Positions 11,783 to 25,548 of a stretch of DNA of 64,000 bases are shown piece by piece (within the stretch, counting starts at the first letter, position 1; each line of letters begins with the position of its first letter). The translations under genes were made by a program, and so were the position numbers. The stretch covers positions 5,136 through 69,135 of the forward strand of contig JAZRFQ010000044.1 of assembly GCA_045643725.1 (NCBI GenBank), in the 5' to 3' direction. The notes under the pieces are model-generated. The model had not been told where the DNA came from and ran no database searches. It was given only the letters and a program-made list of their open reading frames with translations. This stretch comes from Eubacteriales bacterium. GTDB taxonomy: Bacteria > Bacillota > Clostridia > Oscillospirales > CAG-272.

Positions 11783-14278
11783 TTATTTCTTTTTCATAGG
11801 ATCGACAATGCCGAGACGCTCTGCCGCCTCCTCGCGCATCTTGTACTTGAGGATCTTGCCTGCCGCATTCATCGGGAATGCCTCGACAAACTCGATGTAC
11901 TTCGGCACCTTATGGCGCGCCATGCTCGCCTTGATGTAATCGGACATCTCGGCGACAGTCAGACTGCCCGACTCCTTGAGGATAATACAGGCCATTATTT
12001 CCTCGCCGTATTTCTCGTCGGGAACGCCGATTACCTGCACGTCCTTGACCGCGGGATGAGTGTATATGAACTCCTCGATCTCCTTGGGGTAGATGTTCTC
12101 GCCGCCGCGGATGATCATATCCTTGAGACGGCCGGTGATTTTGAAGTTGCCCTGCTCGTCGTAGGATGCGAGGTCGCCCGAGTGAAGCCAGCCGTCCTCG
12201 TCGATGGTATCCTTGGTCGCCATAGGCATCTTGTAGTAGCCCTTCATGGTGTTGTAGCCCTTGGCGCAGAACTCGCCGTTCACGCCGGGGCCGACCTCCT
12301 CGCCGGTCTCGGGATCGACGACCTTACAGCGAACGTGAGGGAATGCGTATCCAACCGTCTCGGTGCGGACGTCAAGAGGATCGGTCCAGGAGCTCATCGT
12401 GTTACCGGGAGCGCACTCGGTTTGACCGTATACGCTGACGATGCCGGTCATATTCATCTCATTCGGATCTGCGGCACGGCGCATCAGGTCTGCAGGACAG
12501 CCCGAGCCTGCCATAATTCCCGTTCTCATATGCGAAAAATCGGTGTTACGGTAGTTCGGATGGTTGAACATCGCGATGAACATGGTGGGAACGCCGTTGA
12601 AGCAGGTGATCTTCTCCTGATTGATGCAAGCAAGCGATGATTTTGCCGAGAAATAGGGCATCGGGCACATAGTAGCTCCGTGAGTCATAGACGAGGTCAT
12701 AGACAACGTCATACCGAAGCAATGGAACATAGGCACCTGGATCATCATACGGTCAGCGGTGGAGAGTCCCATACGGTCGCCGATACACTTGCCGTTGTTT
12801 ACTACGTTATAGTGAGTGAGCATTACGCCCTTAGGGAAGCCGGTTGTGCCCGAGGTGTACTGCATATTGCATACGTCGCCGGGGCGTACTGCCGCCGCCA
12901 TTCTTGCCACCTGCTCGGCGCTGACGAGCTTGTATCGCTCCATCGCCTCGTCAAAGGTAAGAGAGCCGGGCTGCTTGAAGCCGACGGTGATTACGTTTCT
13001 GAGGAAGGGCAGGCGCTTTGCGCGCAGAGGCTCGCCGGGGACGGTGTCCTTGATCTCGGGGCAGAGAGTGTTGATGATCTCCTGATAGTTTGAGTCGAGA
13101 CAGCTGTCGATCATAACGAGGGTGTGAGTGTCCGACTGACGCAGAAGATACTCTGCCTCGTGGATCTTGTAGGCGGTGTTTACGGTTACGAGCACCGCAC
13201 CGATTCTGGTCGTAGCCCAGAAGGTGATATACCACGCAGGAAGGTTGGTCGCCCAAACGGCTACCTTTGAGCCTGCCTTAACGCCGAGGGAGACGAGAGC
13301 TCGCGCGAATCTGTCAACCTCCTCGCGGAACTCGGCGTAGGTACGGGTATAGTCGAGAGTGGTATACTTGAAGCAGAGCTGATCGGGGAACTCGTCGGCA
13401 ACTCTGTCGAGCACCTCGGGGAAGGTGAGATTGATAAGCTCGTCCTTCTTCCAGACGTACTGACCTGTGCCGTCGTGGTTGAAATAGAGCTTTTTCTTCA
13501 TATCTCTCGTAGAGCTGAAGCGCGACATATAATTGGCAAAGTAGGGGAAGATGATCTCGGGATCCTGCAGATCCTCGAGCCAGTCGGGCTTCCACTCAAG
13601 CGAGATGAAGCCGTCGTAATTTACCGATGAGAGCGCACGCATAACGTCGTCGATAGGCATCGTGCCCTCTCCGATGAGCTGATACTTGCCGCTGTCGTCG
13701 GAGTCGCGCATATGAACGTGCTTGACGTAGCAGCCGAGATTCTTTATGGTCTGGTCGCCCGACTCACCGTTATCGCGGTATGGGTGATGAATATCCCAGA
13801 GAACGGCGAGATTATCGCTGGCAAAGCGGTCGAGCATATCGCGGAGTCTGCCGGTGTTGGAGTAGATTCCGCTCGTTTTTACGAGGATGCTGACCCCGAT
13901 GCGCTCGGCGTAAGGAACAAGCTCAAGAAGAGCCGAGTAAACGCCGTACTCGTCGCCCTCGATCGCGCAAACAACAACGTAGGGAACGCGAGCGTTATAG
14001 GCGATGTCCATCAGCGACTTGACCTCATCGATCACCGATCCCTTGACCGATATGTCGAGCGAAGAGTCGAAGCAGGGGATAGAGATCTGCATATCGCGCA
14101 GACGGCGTACGGTCGCTGCCGTGTTGTATTTATGGAAGGGACCGCCGCGGTCAATGAGGGTGTCAAACTTCGGGAGATTGTAGACCTCAACGCCACCGAA
14201 TCCCATGTCGGTTGCTACCTCGAGCATCTCATCAAAGGAGAAGCCGGGCCAACCGCGAGTGGAAAAGGAAAGCTTCAT
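11783..14278 (-). CDS. Fusion protein: xylose-isomerase-like TIM-barrel domain (N) + AMP-forming acyl-CoA ligase (C)
   Basis: 831 aa. The first about 270 aa resemble sugar-phosphate isomerase/epimerase (AP endonuclease 2 fold). The rest carries ANL motifs YTSGTTGFPKGVMLTH, GRLKDMIIRGGENIYPKEIE and NAAGKILK. Confidence 0.8.
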   Translation of the reverse strand: MKLSFSTRGWPGFSFDEMLEVATDMGFGGVEVYNLPKFDTLIDRGGPFHKYNTAATVRRLRDMQISIPCFDSSLDISVKGSVIDEVKSLMDIAYNARVPYVVVCAIEGDEYGVYSALLELVPYAERIGVSILVKTSGIYSNTGRLRDMLDRFASDNLAVLWDIHHPYRDNGESGDQTIKNLGCYVKHVHMRDSDDSGKYQLIGEGTMPIDDVMRALSSVNYDGFISLEWKPDWLEDLQDPEIIFPYFANYMSRFSSTRDMKKKLYFNHDGTGQYVWKKDELINLTFPEVLDRVADEFPDQLCFKYTTLDYTRTYAEFREEVDRFARALVSLGVKAGSKVAVWATNLPAWYITFWATTRIGAVLVTVNTAYKIHEAEYLLRQSDTHTLVMIDSCLDSNYQEIINTLCPEIKDTVPGEPLRAKRLPFLRNVITVGFKQPGSLTFDEAMERYKLVSAEQVARMAAAVRPGDVCNMQYTSGTTGFPKGVMLTHYNVVNNGKCIGDRMGLSTADRMMIQVPMFHCFGMTLSMTSSMTHGATMCPMPYFSAKSSLACINQEKITCFNGVPTMFIAMFNHPNYRNTDFSHMRTGIMAGSGCPADLMRRAADPNEMNMTGIVSVYGQTECAPGNTMSSWTDPLDVRTETVGYAFPHVRCKVVDPETGEEVGPGVNGEFCAKGYNTMKGYYKMPMATKDTIDEDGWLHSGDLASYDEQGNFKITGRLKDMIIRGGENIYPKEIEEFIYTHPAVKDVQVIGVPDEKYGEEIMACIILKESGSLTVAEMSDYIKASMARHKVPKYIEFVEAFPMNAAGKILKYKMREEAAERLGIVDPMKKK

Positions 14279-15701: not shown

Positions 15702-15984
15702 AAATAAAAAAGCCCCTGTGCCGACTAATCGGTCAAGGGACGAAAAAATTCGCGGTACCACCCTAATTATCTCTACGGGAGAGATCACTTTCCAGCCTCA
15801 AATAAGGCCACACCCTGTAACGGAGGCATCCGTGTCCGATTACTCGCATATCGCTTTGACAGGACCGACTCGGGAAGGAGAATACCAAAACCGTTCGTAT
15901 CGGCTCGCACCAAGCGCCGACTCTCTGTGACGTCTGAAATTGGCATATTTTCCGTCATTGTCTTTTTAAAATGGCGATTAAATT
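15702..15984 (-). promoter_or_regulatory. T-box riboswitch leader (tRNA-sensing attenuator) for the 15681<-11783 operon
   Basis: Read on the minus strand: GA motif tgacggaa, AGAGAG bulge, distal-loop GGTGCGA, F-box CCGTTA, and T-box aattagggtggtaccgcgaa (15749-15768). A terminator hairpin cccttgaccga..tcggcacagggg plus T-run lies at 15705-15740. Confidence 0.85.
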
Positions 15985-16115: not shown

Positions 16116-16144
16116 TTGACATTCAAAAAAAGATGTGCTAAAAT
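16116..16144 (+). promoter_or_regulatory. sigma-A promoter of the plus-strand T-box leader
   Basis: TTGACA, 17 nt, TGc-TAAAAT. Confidence 0.65.
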
Positions 16145-16150
16145 ATTCGT

Positions 16151-16407
16151 ATAAAAACTGTGACGAAGACGGTACGGTGAGAGAGTTTTCAGAGAGTCGG
16201 CGCTTGGTGCGAGCCGATAGCTTGTAGCCGAAATACCCATCACTTCCGAGTTGAAGATCTGAACGGCTGCGTTAGGGTCTTACGTTTCCCGCGTTAAGGG
16301 TAAGAGCTTGTTAGAGCTTGAAGTGGCGTTTATCGCAAATTGAGTGGTACCGCGGGTATAATTACTCGTCTCAAGAAGTTGTTTCTTGAGGCGTTTTTTG
16401 TTTTTTA
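16151..16407 (+). promoter_or_regulatory. T-box riboswitch leader for the 16447-> operon
   Basis: GA motif tgacgaag, AGAGAG bulge, distal-loop GGTGCGA, F-box-like GCGTTA, and T-box aaattgagtggtaccgcggg (16337-16356). A terminator cgtctcaagaa-gttg-tttcttgaggcg plus T-run lies at 16368-16407. Confidence 0.85.
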
Positions 16408-16446: not shown

Positions 16447-18714
16447 ATGACCAACCAGTATAACGTCAGTCAGCTTCAGAGGATCGCGCTTCGAATTCGC
16501 GAGATGCGCGAGATTTTCGGTTACAGCACCTCGAAGATGGCGGAGATGATAGATATCACCGAGGAGGTATATCTTTCTTACGAGTCGGGTGCGGTCGACC
16601 TACCCTTCACATTTATGCATAAGTGCGCCCAGGCCTTCGGCGTGGAGATCACCGATATTCTCGAGGGTCACAGCGCAAAGCTCTCGGGATATACCGTTAC
16701 CCGTAGAGGCGAGGGTCTCACTACCGCGAGCGAGGATGGCATTACCATTCAGGATATGGCACCTCTTTTCAGACATAAGCTGGCAACACCCTATTGGGTA
16801 ACCTATAAGTACTCCGAGGAGCTTCAGAGCCGTCCGATCAGCACGGTTACTCACGCAGGTCAGGAGTTCGATATGGTCGTCAAGGGTGCGATGCGCATCC
16901 GCATTGGCGATCACGAGGAGACTCTGCGCGAGGGCGACAGTATCTTCTTCAAGTCCTCCACACCTCACGGTATGATAGCCGTCGGCGGCGAGGACTGCGT
17001 GTTCCTTGCTATGGTCATGGCGAGCGATAGCACCGATCAGCCCATGTACGTTGGCGAGCCTACCAATACAAAGCAGACACAGCCTCTTCTTTGCGAGAAG
17101 TTCGTGAAGCCTGTAGAGAACGAGAACGGCGAGCTTCTTGACGTTCGCTTCTCCAATGAGGACAGATATAACTTCGCGTTCGATACCGTCGACGAGATAG
17201 CGCGTAAGTATCCCGACAAGCTCGCGATGCTCCACGTTGCAAACGATATGACCGAGCGCAGATTTACCTTTAAGGATATGAAGGAAGCCTCCTCGCAGAG
17301 CGCTAACTACTTCAAGTCCCTCGGCATCAAGCGCGGCGACAGAGTTATGCTCGTTCTCAAGAGACATTATCAGTTCTGGTTCGCAATACTCGGCCTTCAT
17401 AAGCTCGGCGCGATCGCAATTCCCGCGACCAATCAGCTCGTTGAGCACGATTTCACCTATCGCTTCGAGGCGGCAGGCGTCAGCGCGATACTCTGTACCG
17501 CAGACGGCGATACCGCGCGTCAGGTCGAGCTCGCAGAGGAGAAGAACGGTCTTTCGCTCACCAAGGTCATAGTCGGCGGCGAGAGGGAAGGATGGCACCA
17601 TTATGACAGCGAGTACGGTCTCTTCAGCCGCAGATATCTGCGCGAGCCCGATGCTCCCTGCGGAAACGATCCCATGCTTATGCTCTTTACCTCGGGCACG
17701 ACAGGCTATCCCAAGATGGCTATGCATTCCTACAAGTACGCACTCGGTCATTACGTGACCGCGAAATATTGGCACCGTTGCGAGCAGGACGGACTTCACT
17801 TCACGATTTCCGAGACCGGATGGGGCAAGGCTCTGTGGGGCAAGCTCTACGGTCAGTGGCTCTGCGAGGGCGGAGTATTCACCTATGACTTCGACAGATT
17901 TGACTCGTCGAAGATACTTCCCATGTTCGCAAAGTACGGTATAACCACCTTCTGTGCACCCCCTACGATGTACAGAATGCTTATCAAGCAGGATCTGGGC
18001 AACTACGATCTCTCGTCTATACGCCACGCGACAACAGCGGGCGAGGCGCTCAACCCCGAGGTCTTCTATCAGTTCGAGAAGGCTACTGGCCTGCGCATTG
18101 CCGAGGGCTTCGGACAGACCGAGATGACTCTCGGTATCGCAAATCTCGTTGGCACGAAGCTCAAGCCCGGCGCAATGGGTAAGCCCGTTCCCGGCTACGG
18201 CATCGACCTCGTCGATCCCGACGGGAAGCCGGTTGCCGACGGTGTCAACGGCGAGATCGTTATTCGCACCAAGCCGAAGAAGCATCCCGGCGTCTTCCTT
18301 GGCTATTATCTGAACGAGGATGCGACAAAGAACGCTTGGCACGACGGTCTCTATCACACAGGCGACGTTGCGTGGCGTGATGAGGACGGCTATTATTGGT
18401 ACGTAGGTCGCGCAGACGACGTCATCAAGTCCTCGGGCTACAGAATCGGCCCGTTCGAGATAGAGTCCACCATTATGGAGCTTCCTTACGTGCTTGTGTG
18501 CGGTGTTTGCGCCGCGCCCGACGAGGTAAGAGGTCAGGTCGTCAAGGCTTGCATCGTTCTCGTTCCCGGAGTGGAGGCTACTGACGAGCTCAGACGCGAT
18601 ATTCAGAATTACGTCAAGCAGCATACCGCGCCCTACAAGTATCCGAGAATAGTTGAGTTCCGCACCGAGCTTCCCAAGACTATAAGCGGAAAGATCATGA
18701 GAAATAAGCTTTAA
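16447..18714 (+). CDS. Fusion protein: XRE-type HTH + cupin domain (N) + AMP-forming medium-chain-type acyl-CoA ligase (C)
   Basis: 755 aa. The first about 70 aa are HTH_3-like (..FGYSTSKMAEMIDITEEVYLSYESG..). Next comes a cupin (..HAGQEFDMVVKGAMRIRIGDHEETLREGDSIFFKSSTPHGM..). ANL motifs follow: FTSGTTGYPKMAMH, YHTGDVAWRDEDGYYWYVGRADDVIKSSGYRIGPFEIES and PKTISGKIMR. Confidence 0.85.
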   Translation: MTNQYNVSQLQRIALRIREMREIFGYSTSKMAEMIDITEEVYLSYESGAVDLPFTFMHKCAQAFGVEITDILEGHSAKLSGYTVTRRGEGLTTASEDGITIQDMAPLFRHKLATPYWVTYKYSEELQSRPISTVTHAGQEFDMVVKGAMRIRIGDHEETLREGDSIFFKSSTPHGMIAVGGEDCVFLAMVMASDSTDQPMYVGEPTNTKQTQPLLCEKFVKPVENENGELLDVRFSNEDRYNFAFDTVDEIARKYPDKLAMLHVANDMTERRFTFKDMKEASSQSANYFKSLGIKRGDRVMLVLKRHYQFWFAILGLHKLGAIAIPATNQLVEHDFTYRFEAAGVSAILCTADGDTARQVELAEEKNGLSLTKVIVGGEREGWHHYDSEYGLFSRRYLREPDAPCGNDPMLMLFTSGTTGYPKMAMHSYKYALGHYVTAKYWHRCEQDGLHFTISETGWGKALWGKLYGQWLCEGGVFTYDFDRFDSSKILPMFAKYGITTFCAPPTMYRMLIKQDLGNYDLSSIRHATTAGEALNPEVFYQFEKATGLRIAEGFGQTEMTLGIANLVGTKLKPGAMGKPVPGYGIDLVDPDGKPVADGVNGEIVIRTKPKKHPGVFLGYYLNEDATKNAWHDGLYHTGDVAWRDEDGYYWYVGRADDVIKSSGYRIGPFEIESTIMELPYVLVCGVCAAPDEVRGQVVKACIVLVPGVEATDELRRDIQNYVKQHTAPYKYPRIVEFRTELPKTISGKIMRNKL

Positions 18715-18769
18715 TGGGCAAAAAACACAAAATACCCCCTAACCGTGTTAAATATTTACTGAAAAAGTA

Positions 18770-18799
18770 TTGACAAGCACAGTTGTAATTGAGTATAAT
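18770..18799 (+). promoter_or_regulatory. Internal sigma-A promoter ahead of the second ligase paralog
   Basis: TTGACA, 18 nt, TATAAT in the 162-nt gap. Confidence 0.55.
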
Positions 18800-18876
18800 A
18801 TCTCTATTAATTAAAATTTTTAGGACAAAATCCGCGCACTCTCGACAGAGACCGCGGAGCATCCAATACATACGAG

Positions 18877-21156
18877 GTGGTTTCGGCGATGGACGGAATG
18901 AAGGACAAACTTAATCAAATAGCGGCGCGAATCAAGGAGCTCCGTATCGTTACGGGACTTACCGTCGAGGAGATGGCGGCCCGTACCGGCATTACCGTAG
19001 AGGAGTACGAGCAGTGTGAGGCAGGCAACCGCAATCTCAGCGTAGCCTTTCTTTATCATTGTACCCTCAGCTTCGGCGTCGATCTCGGAGATCTTCTCGA
19101 GGGTAAGAGCCCGAAGCTCCGTCAGTATGCTCTGACTCGTCGCGGCGGCGGTCAGCGCATCGAGGAAGCGCACAATATGATAGGCTTCAACCTCGCGGCA
19201 GAGTTCCGTAACCGTATTGCTCTTCCGCTTTATATGGAGCTTTCCTATAACGGTGACGAGGAGAATATCGAGCTCGTGACTCACGAGGGTCAGGAGTGCG
19301 ATATCGTCATCAAGGGACATATGAAGATACGCATCGGCGAGAAGACCGAGATCCTCGGCCCCGGCGACTGTATTTACTTCGACTCGGGTACACCCCACGG
19401 CATGATAGCCGTTGGCGGCGAGGATTGTAGCTTCTATGCCATCGTCCTCAGAAACCAGGCGGCAAGACTTGGCGAGCAGGGCGCAGTTCCCTCGGTCGCT
19501 ACCAAGAGATATGCCGACGATGCAGGCAGCCGTATTTATCAGGACTTCATCATTCCCACCGAGGAGGGCGGAATTCTCAAGAAGATCGCCTTCAAGAACG
19601 AGGACAAGTTCAACTTCGCCTTCGACGTAGTCGACGAGCTTGGAAAGCGCAAGCCGGATAAGCTTGCGATGCTCCACGTCAGCGAGGATGGCACCGAGCA
19701 CAGATTTACCTTCAGCGATATCAAGAAGGAGTCGGCAAGAGCCGCAAATTACTTCAAGTCTCTCGGCATCAAGCGCGGCGACAGAGTAATGCTCATTCTC
19801 ACACGCCACTATCAGTATTGGTTCTCGGTCATCGGCTTACATAAGCTCGGCGCGATAGCAATCCCTGCACCCAACCAGCTTCTTGAGAAGGATCTCAAGT
19901 ACAGATTCGAGGCAGGAAACGTCAAGGCTATTCTTTGCACCGCGGACGGCGAGGTCTCGAGCGAGGTAGAGCGCGCGGCAGAGCAGTGCCCGAATCTTGC
20001 TCACAAGATACTCGTGGGCGGCGCTCGCGAGGGTTGGCACAGCTTCGATGAAGAGTACAGCCTCTTCAGCAGTCACTATGCACGCACTGAGGATGCTCCC
20101 TGCGGCAACGATCCGATGCTGATGTTCTTCACGTCGGGCACGTCGGGATATCCCAAGATCGCGGCGCATAACTATAAATATCCTCTCGGTCACTTCATTA
20201 CCGCGAAGTATTGGCATCAGGTCAACTCCGAGGGACTTCACTTCACGATTTCGGATACCGGCTGGGCAAAGTCCATGTGGGGTAAGCTCTACGGCCAGTG
20301 GCTCTGCGAGGCGGCGATCTTCGTCTATGACTTCGACAGATTCACTCCCGAGAACATACTTCCTATGTTTGCAAAGTACGGCATCACCACGTTCTGTGCA
20401 CCTCCTACGATGTACAGAATGCTTATCAAGCAGGATCTCTCGAGATTCGACCTCTCGACTATAGAGCACGCGTCCACCGCGGGCGAGGCTCTCAATCCCG
20501 AGGTATTCCGTCAGTTCGAGAAGCACACCGGTCTTCAGATCATGGAGGGCTTCGGTCAGTCCGAGAGCACTCTTATCATCGGTAACCTCTCGGGCGACAG
20601 TCACAAGATGGGCTCTATGGGTAAGCCCGTGCCTCTCTACAAGGTTCGTCTGCTTGATGCCGACGGCGCAGAGGTTGCACGCGGTGAGACGGGTGAGATC
20701 TGTATCGACATCTCGGGGGGCCTACCCTGCGGTCTTGCGTATGCCTACGATGCGAACGAGGAGGTCACCGCACAGACCTGGCGCGACGGTTATTATCACA
20801 CCGGCGACGTTGCCTGGATGGACGAGGACGGCTTCCTTTGGTACGTTGGACGAGTTGACGACGTTATTAAGTCCTCGGGCTACAGAATCGGTCCCTTCGA
20901 GATCGAGAACGTTATTATGGAGCTTCCCTACGTTCTTGAGTGCGGTGTATCCGCCGCTCCCGACGAGGTCAGAGGTCAGGTCGTTAAGGCGAGCATAGTT
21001 CTCGTAAACGGCTTCAAGGGCACCGACGAGCTCAAGCGTGAGATCCAGAACTACGTCAAGTCGAGAACCGCACCCTATAAGTACCCGAGAATTATCGAGT
21101 TCCGCGACAGTCTTCCTAAGACCACAAGCGGCAAGATCATCAGAAAACAGCTGTAA
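18877..21156 (+). CDS. Second XRE-HTH + cupin + AMP-forming acyl-CoA ligase fusion (paralog of 16447..18714)
   Basis: 759 aa with the same three-module architecture and ANL motifs (FTSGTSGYPKIAAH, ..GRVDDVIKSSGYRIGPFEIEN.., PKTTSGKIIR). The start may be the ATG at 18889, 11 nt after GAGG, rather than the GTG at 18877. Confidence 0.85.
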   Translation: MVSAMDGMKDKLNQIAARIKELRIVTGLTVEEMAARTGITVEEYEQCEAGNRNLSVAFLYHCTLSFGVDLGDLLEGKSPKLRQYALTRRGGGQRIEEAHNMIGFNLAAEFRNRIALPLYMELSYNGDEENIELVTHEGQECDIVIKGHMKIRIGEKTEILGPGDCIYFDSGTPHGMIAVGGEDCSFYAIVLRNQAARLGEQGAVPSVATKRYADDAGSRIYQDFIIPTEEGGILKKIAFKNEDKFNFAFDVVDELGKRKPDKLAMLHVSEDGTEHRFTFSDIKKESARAANYFKSLGIKRGDRVMLILTRHYQYWFSVIGLHKLGAIAIPAPNQLLEKDLKYRFEAGNVKAILCTADGEVSSEVERAAEQCPNLAHKILVGGAREGWHSFDEEYSLFSSHYARTEDAPCGNDPMLMFFTSGTSGYPKIAAHNYKYPLGHFITAKYWHQVNSEGLHFTISDTGWAKSMWGKLYGQWLCEAAIFVYDFDRFTPENILPMFAKYGITTFCAPPTMYRMLIKQDLSRFDLSTIEHASTAGEALNPEVFRQFEKHTGLQIMEGFGQSESTLIIGNLSGDSHKMGSMGKPVPLYKVRLLDADGAEVARGETGEICIDISGGLPCGLAYAYDANEEVTAQTWRDGYYHTGDVAWMDEDGFLWYVGRVDDVIKSSGYRIGPFEIENVIMELPYVLECGVSAAPDEVRGQVVKASIVLVNGFKGTDELKREIQNYVKSRTAPYKYPRIIEFRDSLPKTTSGKIIRKQL

Positions 21157-21186
21157 AAGATTGCACCTCGGTGCAGAGAAAAATAT

Positions 21187-21849
21187 ATGAAAACAGATTC
21201 TAAAAGACTAACGCTCTTCGCAGGTCATTACGGAAGCGGCAAGACGAATATTGCCGTCAACTACGCCTACAAGCTGGCAAGAGAGGGAAAGCGGGTCTGC
21301 ATTGCCGATCTCGACATTGTAAATCCCTACTTCAGAACCAAGGATAGCGAGGCAGAGCTTGAGGCTCTCGGCATTCGCCTTGTTTCGCCCCAATATGCCA
21401 ACACGAACGTGGATCTTCCGGCACTTCCCGCAGAGAGCTACAGATTAGTACAGGATAAATCAACCTACGGAATTATGGACATCGGCGGCGATGACAGAGG
21501 TGCTTACGCTCTCGGTCGCTTTGCCGATGCTATAAAGAGCGAGGACGATTACCGTATGGCATTCGTCGTTAACTGCTACCGTCCCATGACGGCAACGGTG
21601 GAGGATGCCGTAGAGATAATGAGAGAGATCGAGGCGGCCTGCGGCATTCGCTTTAACTGCATCGTCAACAACTCTAATCTCGGTGAGGAGACCACCTCGG
21701 CGACCGTTCGCGATTCGCTCGATTTCGTAGATCGCCTCAGCCAAGCTACCGGACTTGAGATCTGGATGCACACGGCAGAGGAGTCGGTGGCAGAGGAGCT
21801 TTCTGAGCTTTCCGTTATGCCTCTTTCGCTTCAAAAGAAGAAATTTTAA
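21187..21849 (+). CDS. P-loop NTPase (SIMIBI-class, MinD/GPN-like), function unknown
   Basis: 220 aa. Walker A GHYGSGKTN, then ..CIADLDIVNPYF.. and ..MDIGGDD... It sits between the ligase and oxidoreductase genes. Confidence 0.65.
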   Translation: MKTDSKRLTLFAGHYGSGKTNIAVNYAYKLAREGKRVCIADLDIVNPYFRTKDSEAELEALGIRLVSPQYANTNVDLPALPAESYRLVQDKSTYGIMDIGGDDRGAYALGRFADAIKSEDDYRMAFVVNCYRPMTATVEDAVEIMREIEAACGIRFNCIVNNSNLGEETTSATVRDSLDFVDRLSQATGLEIWMHTAEESVAEELSELSVMPLSLQKKKF

Positions 21850-21896: not shown

Positions 21897-22103
21897 ATGG
21901 CAAAGGTAACGTTTAATACCGATATGTGCAAGGGCTGTGGACTTTGCGTTGACGCGTGTCCGAAGAGCTGCCTTGCAATCGCAGATGACAGACTTAATCA
22001 GAAGGGATACTCTCCCGCTTATATGAAGGAGAGCGAGAAGTGTATCGGCTGTGCCTTCTGTGCTACTATGTGTCCCGATTGTATAATCACCGTAGAGAAA
22101 TAA
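21897..22103 (+). CDS. 2-oxoacid:ferredoxin oxidoreductase delta subunit (2x[4Fe-4S] ferredoxin)
   Basis: 68 aa with CKGCGLCVDACP and CIGCAFCATMCP. Confidence 0.9.
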   Translation: MAKVTFNTDMCKGCGLCVDACPKSCLAIADDRLNQKGYSPAYMKESEKCIGCAFCATMCPDCIITVEK

Positions 22104-22113
22104 GGAGGTTGCT

Positions 22114-23175
22114 ATGGCTGACAGAATTTTAATGAAGGGTAACGAGGCTATCGCAGAGGCCGCGATCCGTGCGGGCTGCCGTCACTACTTCGGTTATCCT
22201 ATCACTCCCCAGACAGAGATCGCCGCTTATATGGCAAAGAAGATGCCCAAGATCGGCGGAGTATTCCTTCAGGCAGAGAGCGAGATCGCATCTATAAATA
22301 TGGTTTACGGCGCAGCTGCGGCAGGTATGCGCGTTATGACCTCATCCTCGAGCCCCGGAATTTCGCTTAAGACCGAGGGACTCAGCTACATAGCAGGCTC
22401 CGACGTTCCTGCACTCGTTGTTAACGTACAGCGCGGCGGCCCCGGACTCGGCGGCATTCAGCCCTCCCAGTCTGATTACTTCCAGGCGACGAAGGGCGGC
22501 GGTCACGGTGACTACCGTATGATCGTTCTTGCGCCCGCATCGGTTCAGGAGATGGCGAGCCTTACTATCAAGGGCTTTGATCTCGCTGACAAGTATAATA
22601 TGACCTCTATGATCCTCGCAGACGGTACCATCGGTCAGATGATGGAGCCCATCACCTTCGAGGACGCCGAGATCAAGACCTATGAGAAGCCCTGGGCTCT
22701 CACAGGTACCGAGAAGAAGCGTGCTCACAACATAGTTAACTCTCTTTACCTCAAGCCCGATGAGCTTGAGAAAAAGAACTTTGAGCGCTTTGAGAAGTAC
22801 GCCGAGATCGAGAAGACCGAGGCAATGTGGGAGAACTATATGACCGAGGACGCAGAGATCTGCGTTGTAGCCTTCGGTATTGCCGCACGCGTTGCCAAGA
22901 ACGCCGTTGCCGCGGCAAGAGCAGAGGGCATCAAGGTCGGTCTTATCCGCCCCATCACCCTTTGGCCCTTCCCCAACGCCGCATTCGATGCGGTAAAGAA
23001 TGCAAAGGCATTCATCTCGGTAGAGCTCAGTATGGGACAGATGATCGAGGACGTGAAGCTTGCTAGCAAGTGTCAGAAGCCCGTCTCTCTTTGCAACCGC
23101 TCGGGCGGTATGATCCCCTCGCCCGATGAGGTTCTCGAGGCTATAAGAAATGCAGCGAAAGGAGTGAATGAATAA
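22114..23175 (+). CDS. vorB: 2-oxoacid:ferredoxin oxidoreductase alpha subunit (VorB/KorA-type)
   Basis: 353 aa. N-terminus ..[30 protein letters not shown].. is typical of this subunit. The branched-chain (VOR) assignment rests on the four-subunit layout and the adjacent ilvE. Confidence 0.8.
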
Positions 23176-23927
23176 TGGCAACCGTATTTGAAAAACCTAA
23201 ATCCTTAACAGACACTCCGTTCCATTACTGTCCCGGATGTCCCCACGGTATAATCCACCGCCTCGTTGCAGAGGTTATGGATGAGCTTGATATCGAGGGT
23301 AAGGCAATCGGCGTTGCACCCGTAGGATGCGCCGTTATGGCGTACGATTACTTCGCTTGCGATATGATCGAGGCTCCTCACGGCAGAGCACCCGCTGTTG
23401 CTACCGGCATCAAGCGCTGCCGCCCCGATAACGTCGTATTCACCTATCAGGGTGACGGCGACCTTGCGTCTATCGGTATGGCAGAGACGGTTCATTCAGC
23501 GGCAAGAAACGAGAACATCACGGTTATCTTCGTAAACAACGCGATCTACGGTATGACCGGCGGTCAGATGGCTCCTACCAGCCTTCCCGGTCAGGTTACC
23601 CAGACCTCTCCCTACGGCCGTGACGACAAGCACTGCGGTTGGTCCATTAAGGGCAGCGAGATGCTCGCAACCCTCGAGGGCCCCGAGTACATCGCACGCG
23701 TAGCGGTAAACAACGTAAAGAACGTCAAGAACGCCAAGAAGGCTATCAAGAAGGCCTTTGAGAATCAGATAGCAGGAAAGGGCTTCTCTCTCGTAGAGGT
23801 CGTTTCCGCCTGCCCCACCAACTGGGGCATGACTCCCAAGGCGGCACTCGAGTGGATAGAGAGCGATATGCTTCCTTACTATCCCATCGGAGTATACAAG
23901 GACAGAAGCGCAGGGGAGGAGAAGTAA
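23175..23927 (+). CDS. 2-oxoacid:ferredoxin oxidoreductase beta subunit (TPP-binding)
   Basis: 250 aa with ..YCPGCPHG.. and the TPP motif ..[19 protein letters not shown]; ATGA-type overlap with the alpha subunit. Confidence 0.85.
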
Positions 23928-23928
23928 T

Positions 23929-24468
23929 ATGAAGACAACACAGATCCTCATCGCCGGCTTCGGCGGACAGGGAATACTCTTCTCGGGTAAGTTCCTCGCT
24001 TACAAGGGACTGACCGAGGAGCTTCAGGTATCCTGGCTTCCCTCGTACGGCCCCGAGATGCGTGGCGGTACTGCAAACTGTAACGTAATTCTCTCGGACG
24101 ATCCCGTTGGCTCGCCCATTATCACCGCACCCGACGTTCTTATCGCTATGAACCTGCCCTCGCTTCAGAAGTACGTTAATTCTGTTGTAGCAGGCGGTCA
24201 GATATACGTTGACTCCTCTCTTATCGACGTCAAGGTCGAGAGAGACGACGTTCAGGTGTTCTACATTCCCGCAACTCAGATGGCGAAGGATGCAGGCATC
24301 GCTACTCTCGCGAATATGATCATCATCGGTCACCTTCTCGAGAATCATCCCGAGCTTTCCTTCGACGGCGTTGACGTGGTTGTTGATAGCCTTGTGCCTC
24401 CCAAGAAGGCGGCGCTCAAGGAGCTCAACATTAAGGCACTCACTCTCGGTAAGAACTACAACAAATAA
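23929..24468 (+). CDS. 2-oxoacid:ferredoxin oxidoreductase gamma subunit
   Basis: 179 aa; ..[29 protein letters not shown].. is typical of the gamma subunit. Confidence 0.85.
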
Positions 24469-24522
24469 AAAATGCGCCCACCTGACGTCAAGCGGTGCGG
24501 CACTTATAAAACGGAGACAATT

Positions 24523-25548
24523 ATGGAAAAGAAAAATATCGACTGGGCTTCTCTCGGCTTCGGCTATATGGAGACCGACTACAGCTACGTTTCCTACTAC
24601 AAGGACGGCAAGTGGGATGACGGCGCTCTTACCGCCGAGCACACCGTAACTCTCAACGAGTGTGCTTGCGTGTTCCAGTACGCGCAGACCTGCTTCGAGG
24701 GACTCAAGGCATACACCACCGAGGACGGCAGAATCGTTACCTTCCGCCCCGACCTCAATGCACAGCGTATGGCTGACTCTGCAGAAAGACTCAGAATGCC
24801 CGTATTCCCCGTGGAGAGATTCATCGAGGCGGTTAAGATGGTCGTAAAGGCTAACGCCGCATACGTCCCCCCCTTCGGCTCGGGCGCAACTCTCTATATC
24901 AGGCCCTATATGATGGGAACCAACGCGGTTATCGGCGTTAAGCCTGCAACCGAGTATATGTTCCGTATTCTCGTAACTCCCGTAGGCCCTTACTTCAAGG
25001 GCGGCGTTAAGCCTCTTACCGTAAGACTTTCCGACCTTGACCGCGCCGCTCCTCACGGAACAGGTCACATCAAGGCAGGTCTTAACTACGCGATGAGCCT
25101 TTACAACATCGTTGAGGCTCACGAGCTCGGCTACGACGAGAACATCTACCTTGATGCCGCAACTCACACCAACATCGAGGAGACCGGCGGCGCTAACGTC
25201 CTCTTCGTTACCAAGGACGGCGGAGTTGCAACTCCCAAGTCTGATACCATTCTCCCCTCCATTACACGTCGTTCTCTTATGGTAGTTGCCAGCGATTACC
25301 TCGGACTCAAGGCAGAGGAGAGAGTTATCTCCAAGGACGAGCTTGACAGCTTTGCCGAGTGTGGCCTTTGCGGTACTGCGGCCGTTATCTCTCCCGTTGG
25401 TAAGATCGTTGACCACGGTCGCGAGATCTGCTTCCCCGCAGGTATGACCGAGATGGGCCCTGTTACCAAGAAGCTTTACGAGACGCTTACCGGTATCCAG
25501 ATGGGACGCATCGAGGCTCCCGAGGGATGGATCGTTGAGATCAAGTAA
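24523..25548 (+). CDS. ilvE: Branched-chain-amino-acid aminotransferase (class IV)
   Basis: I chose the start at MEKKNIDW (GGAG 6 nt upstream) rather than the ORF-track 24472. ..FEGLKAY..DGRIVTFRPD.N..R...S..RL.MP.. and the length match IlvE. Confidence 0.85.
   Translation: MEKKNIDWASLGFGYMETDYSYVSYYKDGKWDDGALTAEHTVTLNECACVFQYAQTCFEGLKAYTTEDGRIVTFRPDLNAQRMADSAERLRMPVFPVERFIEAVKMVVKANAAYVPPFGSGATLYIRPYMMGTNAVIGVKPATEYMFRILVTPVGPYFKGGVKPLTVRLSDLDRAAPHGTGHIKAGLNYAMSLYNIVEAHELGYDENIYLDAATHTNIEETGGANVLFVTKDGGVATPKSDTILPSITRRSLMVVASDYLGLKAEERVISKDELDSFAECGLCGTAAVISPVGKIVDHGREICFPAGMTEMGPVTKKLYETLTGIQMGRIEAPEGWIVEIK

Follow-up and report, generated by a model that had tools for sequence, protein, structure and literature searches.

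A conserved helix-turn-helix-cupin head on T-box-associated putative branched-acid CoA ligases of gut Clostridia as a candidate enzyme-level sensor

The DNA analysed here, a 64,000-nucleotide stretch of an Oscillospirales genome assembly (GCA_045643725.1, contig JAZRFQ010000044.1; hereafter the window), carries two tandem genes, copy 1 (ligA) and copy 2 (ligB), each of which encodes a helix-turn-helix (HTH)-like domain and a cupin fused in front of an AMP-forming acyl-CoA ligase. Our analysis suggests that this HTH-cupin head is a metal-binding sensor dedicated to its ligase, acting at the protein level on a T-box-controlled branched-acid CoA ligase, a reading that we hold with moderate confidence. 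In this proposal, a His/Glu/His site in the head would bind a metal and sense a small molecule, tuning the ligase in a branch-specific way, for example through feedback from an amino acid, a 2-oxoacid or an acyl-CoA, and the head would not primarily be an operator-binding repressor. The ANL ligase itself is of a known type; the new element is its conserved, uncharacterised partner, the putative sensor, and our literature searches, which extended to cupin or HTH fusions with acyl-CoA synthetases, T-boxes of such synthetases and genes for reductive carboxylation, found no publication describing an HTH-cupin-acyl-CoA ligase fusion. The two genes, and the domains of the first, are placed as follows.

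16447..18714, plus strand: copy 1 (ligA), 755 amino acids; HTH-like domain, cupin and MACS-type acyl-CoA synthetase; predicted 2-methylbutyrate-CoA ligase
16471..16665, plus strand: HTH-like five-helix domain of copy 1, residues 9-73; Pfam HTH_19/HTH_3 at cut-off, fold predicted by AlphaFold2 (AF2)
16783..17022, plus strand: cupin barrel of copy 1, residues 113-192; H136/E140/H174 triad; Cupin_2 at 46.7 bits
17023..17151, plus strand: linker between head and ligase of copy 1, residues 193-235; poorly conserved, with a low predicted local distance difference test score (pLDDT)
17152..18711, plus strand: ligase core of copy 1, AMP-binding and AMP-binding_C, with the A10 lysine Lys749; matches PDB entry 3ETC
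18877..21156, plus strand: copy 2 (ligB), 759 amino acids from a GTG start; architecture as in copy 1; predicted isobutyrate-CoA ligase

Both open reading frames (ORFs) lie where the original prediction, made from the sequence alone, had put them, and in each protein the domains follow one another as HTH, Cupin_2, AMP-binding and AMP-binding_C within one intact ORF; full-length identity between the two copies is 60%. Using Pfam gathering scores as domain cut-offs, we found Cupin_2 at 46.7 bits in copy 1 and 51.4 bits in copy 2 (cut-off 27.2), and AMP-binding and AMP-binding_C at 219.6 and 65.7 bits in copy 1 and at 190.3 and 71.6 bits in copy 2 (cut-offs 29.9 and 24.5). The cupin motifs and the complete ANL motifs that had been read from the sequence are indeed there: THAGQEFDMVVKG and GDSIFFKSSTPHGM are both present, as are A3 (TSGTTGYPK), A7 (YHTGD), A8 (GRADDVIKSSGYRIG) and A10 (PKTISGKIMR), the segment with the A10 lysine reading PKTISGKIMR and PKTTSGKIIR in the two copies. 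The core residues of A3, A7, A8 and A10 are invariant in 66 fused relatives, as are H136, E140, H174 and K749. By domains and core motifs the proteins are ANL acyl-CoA synthetases, and by profile match and metal-ligand positions their barrels are Cupin_2 domains. The HTH assignment by profile is borderline: copy 1 scores 30.2 bits with HTH_19 (cut-off 30.2) and 23.1 bits with HTH_3 (cut-off 23), and copy 2 scores 28.7 bits with HTH_19 and 24.3 bits with HTH_31, each slightly under the cut-off. For the segment once recognised as HTH_3 at both N-termini, the profile scores lie at the cut-off in copy 1 and just below it in copy 2, alongside a predicted five-helix fold. Copy 2 probably starts at ATG 18889, giving 755 amino acids as in copy 1; this codon is properly spaced from a ribosome-binding site (GAGGTG at 18874-18879) and aligns with an ATG in a related locus (L001), and the listed GTG start at 18877 overlaps the same ribosome-binding site.

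The two genes encode genuine single polypeptides. Their relatives are encoded in at least 573 stretches of species-representative genomes, and the best 80 of these hold full-length matches in metagenome-assembled genomes from ruminant and other guts, named as Oscillospiraceae, Acutalibacteraceae, Ruminococcus or Faecousia or given as broader groups of Clostridia or Bacillota. Matches to the N-terminal module in the 80 loci are single intact ORFs of 730-790 amino acids in 127 of 130 cases, and contigs of four independent bovine or gut metagenome runs span both head-ligase junctions with no gaps. Because the ORFs are intact in other genomes and four independent runs cross the junctions without an indel, stop or frameshift, the fusion is no artefact, as had been expected, and an assembly or sequencing error that joined two genes is an explanation we regard as almost certainly wrong. 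In a protein search, the best 120 of 8000 scored candidates are all at least 84% identical and have the same domain set, under database names that read only 'AMP-binding protein' or 'cupin domain-containing protein'; the four-domain fusion is common to the two copies and recurs in hundreds of genomes. Between 16400 and 21200 a single indel was seen, an extra C at 18734, in the intergenic ligA-ligB spacer, in metagenome run X1. Public runs of RNA type yielded only short contigs of the locus, with pieces crossing the junction between ligB and the following P-loop gene (21073-21492) and the ligA-ligB spacer (18735-18914), from libraries that may contain DNA and that yield no 5' ends.

Head and ligase are also found together where they are not fused. 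A search with residues 1-235 against 1.84 billion cluster representatives gave 1921 matches at E <= 0.001; in a word-indexed protein search, the head on its own brought up nothing but pieces of fused proteins at contig ends. In the first of these searches, apart from fragments and a small number of fused clusters, the closest relatives of the head are free-standing proteins of about 183-190 amino acids, 32-42% identical over residues 8-191 (32-46% for the free homologues as a whole), which share its conserved residues, including the helix 3 pattern and HxGQE...PHGM. In seven out of seven look-ups, covering Clostridium thermosuccinogenes, two Bacteroidales, other Clostridia, other uncultured lineages and the archaeon Methanohalophilus, the gene immediately following the free head gene, and read in the same direction, encodes an AMP-binding ligase of ~550 amino acids, with identities to the window ligase cores of 48-52%, reaching 58% at the widest. 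In a metagenome scan, 64 loci extended far enough downstream to be read, and 60 of them had the ligase adjoining the head, as separate genes in 40 and as a fusion in 20; we estimate the gaps between separate genes at mostly 0-40 nt. Unfused pairs in other Firmicutes likewise stand behind Ile T-boxes, and in Methanohalophilus the pair is followed by genes for a ferredoxin and a 2-oxoacid:ferredoxin oxidoreductase (VOR). Because head and ligase adjoin in all seven look-ups and in 60 of 64 metagenome loci, gene order identifies the Oscillospirales proteins as a Rosetta-stone type fusion of an old, nearly obligate gene pair, and points to the head as an ancient, dedicated partner of this ligase clade. 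More tentatively, and with some doubt, we suggest that the HTH-cupin protein may be an obligate regulatory subunit of MACS-type branched-acid CoA ligases across Bacteria and Archaea, in which an XRE-type HTH was exapted from DNA binding to enzyme control.

Two of these unfused arrangements deserve separate description. A Methanohalophilus-type contig (L083, 1944-10053) carries two divergent head-ligase modules, one of them followed by ferredoxin and VOR genes; in the second, a 4HBT thioesterase gene lies between a weaker HTH-cupin and a ligase that is 47% identical to the ligase half of another fusion protein of the window, described below. In a Bacteroidales locus (L090, 4184-5555), the free head gene begins 8 nt inside the end of tsf, downstream of rplM-rpsI-rpsB, and has no upstream region of its own.

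The predicted structure of the head is well defined. AF2, run on an 82-sequence alignment, gave a model with a mean pLDDT of 89.6, in which a five-helix bundle (residues 9-73) precedes the cupin barrel. The HTH helices of copy 1 are predicted at residues 9-24, 28-34, 39-46, 54-64 and 68-73, with pLDDT values of 93-98 over residues 11-60 and of 88 and 69 toward the C-terminal end of the block (residue 73); the cupin barrel block has values of 94-98. In the full-length model (pLDDT 78, predicted template modelling score 0.65) the linker has low pLDDT. Across 82 homologues, fused and free, H136, E140 and H174 do not vary, and Val takes the place of the first His in the HxH motif. Identity among orthologues is 59-61% in the HTH and 67% in the cupin (59-88% for the domains overall) against 31-39% in the linker, and five of the seven strictly paralogue-specific residues are located in the head. 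Because HTH and cupin are conserved relative to the linker, the triad is invariant and most paralogue-specific residues fall in this part of the protein, the head appears to be functional and branch-specific; the clustering of these residues fits the recognition of a branch-specific metabolite.

The C-terminal two thirds of both proteins are, judging from their sequence, MACS-type (MacsMa/MbcS-like) short branched-chain acyl-CoA synthetases. The best PDB relative of the ligase core, similar over its full length, is MacsMa of Methanosarcina acetivorans (3ETC; 604 bits, E 1.8e-180), which prefers 2-methylbutyrate as its substrate (PMC10455477). In the alignment with 3ETC, the acyl-pocket Trp of Acs is replaced by Gly (xWQTE to GFGQTE), as in MacsMa, and W464 aligns with Trp259, the alternative acyl-pocket Trp of MacsMa, whose residue numbering we calibrated on GYK = Gly459-Tyr460-Lys461 (PMC10455477); both sequence marks of the MACS/MacsMa type, Gly for the Acs Trp and the alternative Trp, are therefore present. 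The sole ligase-domain residue that strictly separates the paralogues is Gly460 of copy 1, corresponding to Ala464 in copy 2. It sits four residues ahead of W464, and MacsMa has Gly there too, like copy 1. Given this Gly/Ala difference and the T-box specifiers set out below, the most likely substrates are 2-methylbutyrate for copy 1 and isobutyrate for copy 2. The window proteins carry ~235 additional residues at the N-terminus and belong to an operon for VOR and branched-chain aminotransferase (BCAT), controlled by a T-box or a promoter; MacsMa, by contrast, is a stand-alone enzyme without an HTH-cupin head.

The best NCBIfam model for both copies is MbcS (NF047394), with 420 and 426 bits against a curated equivalog cut-off of 850 bits, and on these scores membership of the MbcS equivalog was rejected. 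Of the fused protein, only residues 246-755, the ligase part, align with the 525 positions of the model, which thus has no N-terminal head. MbcS is the methylbutyryl-CoA synthetase of Staphylococcus aureus, which activates branched short-chain acids (PMC10026030, PMC11167679). It feeds fatty-acid synthesis, whereas the window ligases would serve amino-acid synthesis.

Transcription of the two ligase genes appears to follow the same division into branches, and the elements that precede them are these.

16116..16144, plus strand: promoter of the Ile T-box, TTGACA-17-TAAAAT with an upstream TG; 11/12 matches
16151..16376, plus strand: Ile T-box leader, specifier AUC; Rfam RF00230, 104.8 bits (gathering score 93)
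16367-16393, plus strand: terminator hairpin of the Ile T-box, directly upstream of copy 1
18770..18799, plus strand: promoter of copy 2, TTGACA-18-TATAAT; 12/12 matches

Rfam detects two divergent T-boxes in the window, one for Ile and one for Leu. Copy 1 does stand behind a T-box, as had been claimed, and its Ile specifier (ATC) recurs before copy 1 in ~70 readable orthologous leaders, with one exception; a TTGACA/extended -10 promoter equivalent to that of the Ile T-box occurs in related loci. The separate promoter ascribed to copy 2 was also borne out, and is conserved in related loci, including relatives without a Val T-box. Such a Val T-box, with the specifier varying synonymously between GTA and GTC, precedes copy 2 in most relatives, with 43 related loci carrying one. 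It is absent from the window (18715-18876, in comparison with L012-L080), where Rfam finds no T-box before copy 2, and from about 20 related loci; the promoter hexamers are mostly retained in loci of this kind, a few of which have only a 22-48-nt spacer and no promoter. These comparisons suggest that the copy 2 promoter probably once drove a Val T-box leader and was kept when the leader disappeared, and that riboswitch control over copy 2, VOR and BCAT looks to have been lost in the clade of the window. We found no terminator between copy 1 and copy 2. The 5' untranslated region of copy 2 contains a hairpin or palindrome at 18831-18858, TCCGCGCACTCT-CGAC-AGAGACCGCGGA, for which the equivalent position in L001 reads TTGAGT-CGAC-ACTCAA; the stems differ and the loop is identical, and this comparison of two sequences hints at a conserved structure.

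Downstream of copy 2, on the same strand, the operon continues with the following genes.

21187..21849, plus strand: P-loop NTPase (CbiA/MinD-like), by Pfam and by synteny, between copy 2 and the oxidoreductase
21897..22103, plus strand: small ferredoxin-like ORF with 2x[4Fe-4S] Cys motifs read from the sequence; candidate delta subunit
22114..24468, plus strand: VOR alpha (22114-23175), beta (23175-23927) and gamma (23929-24468), by Pfam (POR_N/PFOR_II, TPP_enzyme_C, POR) and synteny
24472..25548, plus strand: BCAT (class IV), by Pfam Aminotran_4 and synteny

The gene order ligA-ligB-P-loop-ferredoxin-VOR alpha/beta/gamma-BCAT is conserved across the 80 loci. With a ferredoxin, a 2-oxoacid:ferredoxin oxidoreductase and BCAT encoded downstream of the ligases, the gene order suggests that the locus salvages 2-methylbutyrate and isobutyrate into Ile and Val: the acyl-CoAs would undergo reductive carboxylation by the adjacent ferredoxin-dependent 2-oxoacid oxidoreductase, the resulting 2-oxoacids would be transaminated by the adjacent BCAT, and transcription would be set by tRNA-sensing T-boxes, for Ile at copy 1 and ancestrally for Val at copy 2. 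Methanohalophilus has a Fer4-family gene at the position of the small ferredoxin ORF. The P-loop NTPase gene follows copy 2 and precedes the ferredoxin/VOR genes in almost every related locus of sufficient length, and its product may help to mature the oxidoreductase or to insert its clusters.

Fibre degraders of the rumen and gut need isobutyrate, 2-methylbutyrate and isovalerate, and biochemical work has shown since the 1960s that these acids can be reductively carboxylated to Val, Ile and Leu. The activating enzymes of this route and their control are poorly assigned, and the locus supplies candidate genes for each branch, under what would be two layers of control: tRNA charging, read by T-boxes, and the conserved head that each ligase carries. 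Should this head sense at the protein level, metabolite feedback would operate per branch (Ile, Val) on the enzyme and demand control by T-boxes on the RNA, which would give the conversion of branched acids into branched amino acids in the rumen its logic at the gene level. It would also be a mode of ANL enzyme regulation that differs from the known lysine acetylation. Practical relevance would lie in isoacid feed supplements and in the interpretation of gut metagenomes.

How the head might act has to be weighed against known proteins of similar build. PuuR, the putrescine-responsive repressor of E. coli, has HTH_3 and cupin in the same order, the same Pfam families and the same His/Glu/His positions. 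However, it is only 18-21% identical to the head (pairwise E about 8e-6), bears the polar residues T-H-S and Q-R-R at positions of helices 2 and 3 that E-E occupies in the head, and is neither fused to nor obligately paired with such an enzyme. The description of the module as PuuR-like is not supported as it stood, and a PuuR orthologue or close relative was rejected on this identity and on a neighbourhood without putrescine genes. Nor is a repressor the only precedent for HTH plus cupin, as had been assumed, because the best structural matches of the head are enzymes: HppE/Psf4 and HEPD/MPnS, which combine an HTH-like alpha domain with a cupin, are the top Foldseek matches over the whole head (E 1e-15 to 1e-9). 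To our knowledge, the HTH-like domain of these proteins is not a DNA-binding domain, and their metal site is a 2-His-1-Glu arrangement; if the head acts as proposed, it would be a further XRE-type HTH fold working outside transcription, with HppE, HEPD and MPnS as precedents. The head model also matches 1Y9Q, an uncharacterised regulator.

The suggestion that the proteins autoregulate their locus through DNA found no support. We enumerated inverted repeats with 5-6-nt arms and 0-14-nt spacers against shuffles, and no conserved operator palindrome emerged from 184 upstream regions, those of 75 ligA leaders, 43 ligB leaders and 66 free-standing head genes; the only repeats above the shuffles were A/T runs and the T-box's own GGTACC, and eight upstream regions viewed directly showed unrelated repeats. 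The segment from helix 2 through the turn to helix 3 is acidic, with the helix 3 consensus S-V-E-E-Y-L-E-Y-E-S-G, and its exposed positions vary among orthologues. The net charge of the HTH is -4 to -6 (-5 in copy 1); that of the PuuR HTH is -2, so charge is weakly informative. T-boxes already govern transcription. The other role put forward, a ligand-sensing domain working as an allosteric module, would fit better, in agreement with the nearly obligate pairing of head and ligase in Bacteria and Archaea and with the concentration of paralogue-specific residues in the head.

The alternative that survives best is an enzyme-repressor resembling BirA, which forms an adenylate, carries an HTH at its N-terminus and binds DNA in dependence on that adenylate. 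Here the HTH would bind DNA with an occupancy set by the cupin ligand or by the state of the ligase (acyl-AMP, acyl-CoA), adding autoregulation on top of the T-box, and the protein could regulate the promoter at 18770-18799, which lost its Val T-box. Several points speak for DNA binding and weigh against the sensor at the protein level. The HTH is of XRE type by Pfam (at or near cut-off) and by its well-predicted fold, and is homologous to XRE-family regulators; it is under purifying selection; and free head homologues are annotated as transcriptional regulators and stand first in their operons, like many autorepressors. A repressor gene heading its own operon is also common, so that adjacency alone does not discriminate. 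PuuR, a proven repressor, shares the architecture, the same His/Glu/His triad and a slightly acidic HTH, so neither triad nor acidity excludes DNA binding. The absent palindrome is a weak argument, as operators may be non-palindromic, diverged or elsewhere. Copy 2 has a consensus promoter without a riboswitch, the loss of the Val T-box before copy 2 and VOR/BCAT leaves room for a protein regulator, and imperfect palindromes follow the copy 2 promoter at 18797-18820 and 18831-18858.

Other objections to a protein-level sensor concern the enzyme. No inter-domain contacts are readable in the AF2 output, and we infer from sequence and genomic context the substrates, metal and ligand of the fused proteins, as well as their sensing and mode of action. 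As far as we know, the assay of MacsMa was made without any head protein. Recombinant MacsMa was assayed as an active enzyme (PMC10455477), which makes it unlikely that the head is needed for catalysis.

We nevertheless judge a BirA-like enzyme-repressor the less probable reading. It is opposed by the lack of a conserved upstream palindrome in the 75, 43 and 66 loci, by acidic helices 2 and 3 with variable exposed positions, and by T-boxes that give demand control to fused and unfused forms alike. The Bacteroidales head gene that starts inside tsf has no promoter region of its own, and the adjacency of head and ligase, kept from Bacteria to Archaea, is in general more typical of subunits and unusual for a regulator and its target. 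BirA itself has unrelated folds, a winged HTH and a ligase resembling class II aminoacyl-tRNA synthetases, and it has a defined operator; no operator was found here.

Much less probable is that the cupin is catalytic or accessory, with a metal-dependent, oxygen-independent activity coupled to the ligase and with the HTH-like domain serving assembly only, as in HppE. Conditioning or proofreading of the acid, acyl-adenylate or acyl-CoA would be examples, as would epimerisation of 2-methylbutyryl species. Such a role would agree with the enzymes of the same HTH-like plus cupin layout that lead the Foldseek matches, with the only PDB sequence match of the head, a marginal one to the Psf4 cupin, with the invariant triad, with the tight, near-obligate gene pairing typical of enzyme subunits, and with the one Methanohalophilus module in which a 4HBT thioesterase stands between head and ligase. 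However, PuuR has the same triad, which is thus not diagnostic; the hosts are probably strict anaerobes, to judge from their taxa, making oxygenase chemistry unlikely; isobutyrate is achiral, yet copy 2 retains the head; and the path from acid through acyl-CoA and 2-oxoacid to amino acid has no obvious missing reaction. A phosphonate enzyme of the HppE kind was rejected: HppE/Psf4 and HEPD/MPnS are oxygen- or peroxide-dependent phosphonate enzymes that are only ~20% identical to the head, with a TM-score of ~0.5 because the domain arrangement differs, and the neighbourhood contains no phosphonate genes.

We give equally little credence to a purely structural head that would mediate dimerisation or docking to the oxidoreductase and sense no ligand: cupins and XRE domains often dimerise and fusion would fix the stoichiometry, but invariant metal ligands and pocket residues, together with the paralogue-specific residues in the head, argue for a small-molecule site.

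A ligase with a possible sensor partner also occurs in the Leu branch, which is encoded on the opposite strand.

15733..15967, minus strand: Leu T-box leader, specifier CUC (CTC, CTG or CTT in relatives); Rfam, 117.2 bits
14278..15681, minus strand: LeuA-like pseudoenzyme; Pfam LeuA_dimer 101.8 bits; LeuA regulatory domain kept, catalytic residues lost
11783..14278, minus strand: fusion of an AP_endonuc_2 TIM barrel with a FadD-like ligase (TIM-ligase), 831 amino acids, by Pfam; in the Leu-T-box operon

Compared with E. coli LeuA, the LeuA-like protein has ATMKQFSE in place of TTLRDGEQ and RCSDA in place of HTHDD, so that the catalytic Arg/Asp and the HxH are gone. In LeuA the regulatory domain, which the pseudoenzyme keeps at its C-terminus, binds leucine, and the pseudoenzyme is a probable sensor partner of this third ligase, in parallel to the pairing of head and ligase in the other branches. 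In the related locus L087 (7371-9872), an unfused barrel (267 amino acids) and ligase (554 amino acids, 53% identical) are encoded by adjacent genes beside an Amidohydro_2 gene; the ligase half of the window protein is 47-53% identical to the ligases at L087 and L083. Because barrel and ligase are separate neighbours in L087, the comparison identifies TIM-ligase as a further case in this locus of a conserved gene pair that has become fused. If the HTH-cupin heads are sensors, the ligases that carry them and the Leu-branch ligase with its dead LeuA would together define a class of 'sensor-partnered' acyl-CoA ligases. The end of the LeuA-like gene overlaps the start of the TIM-ligase gene by one base.

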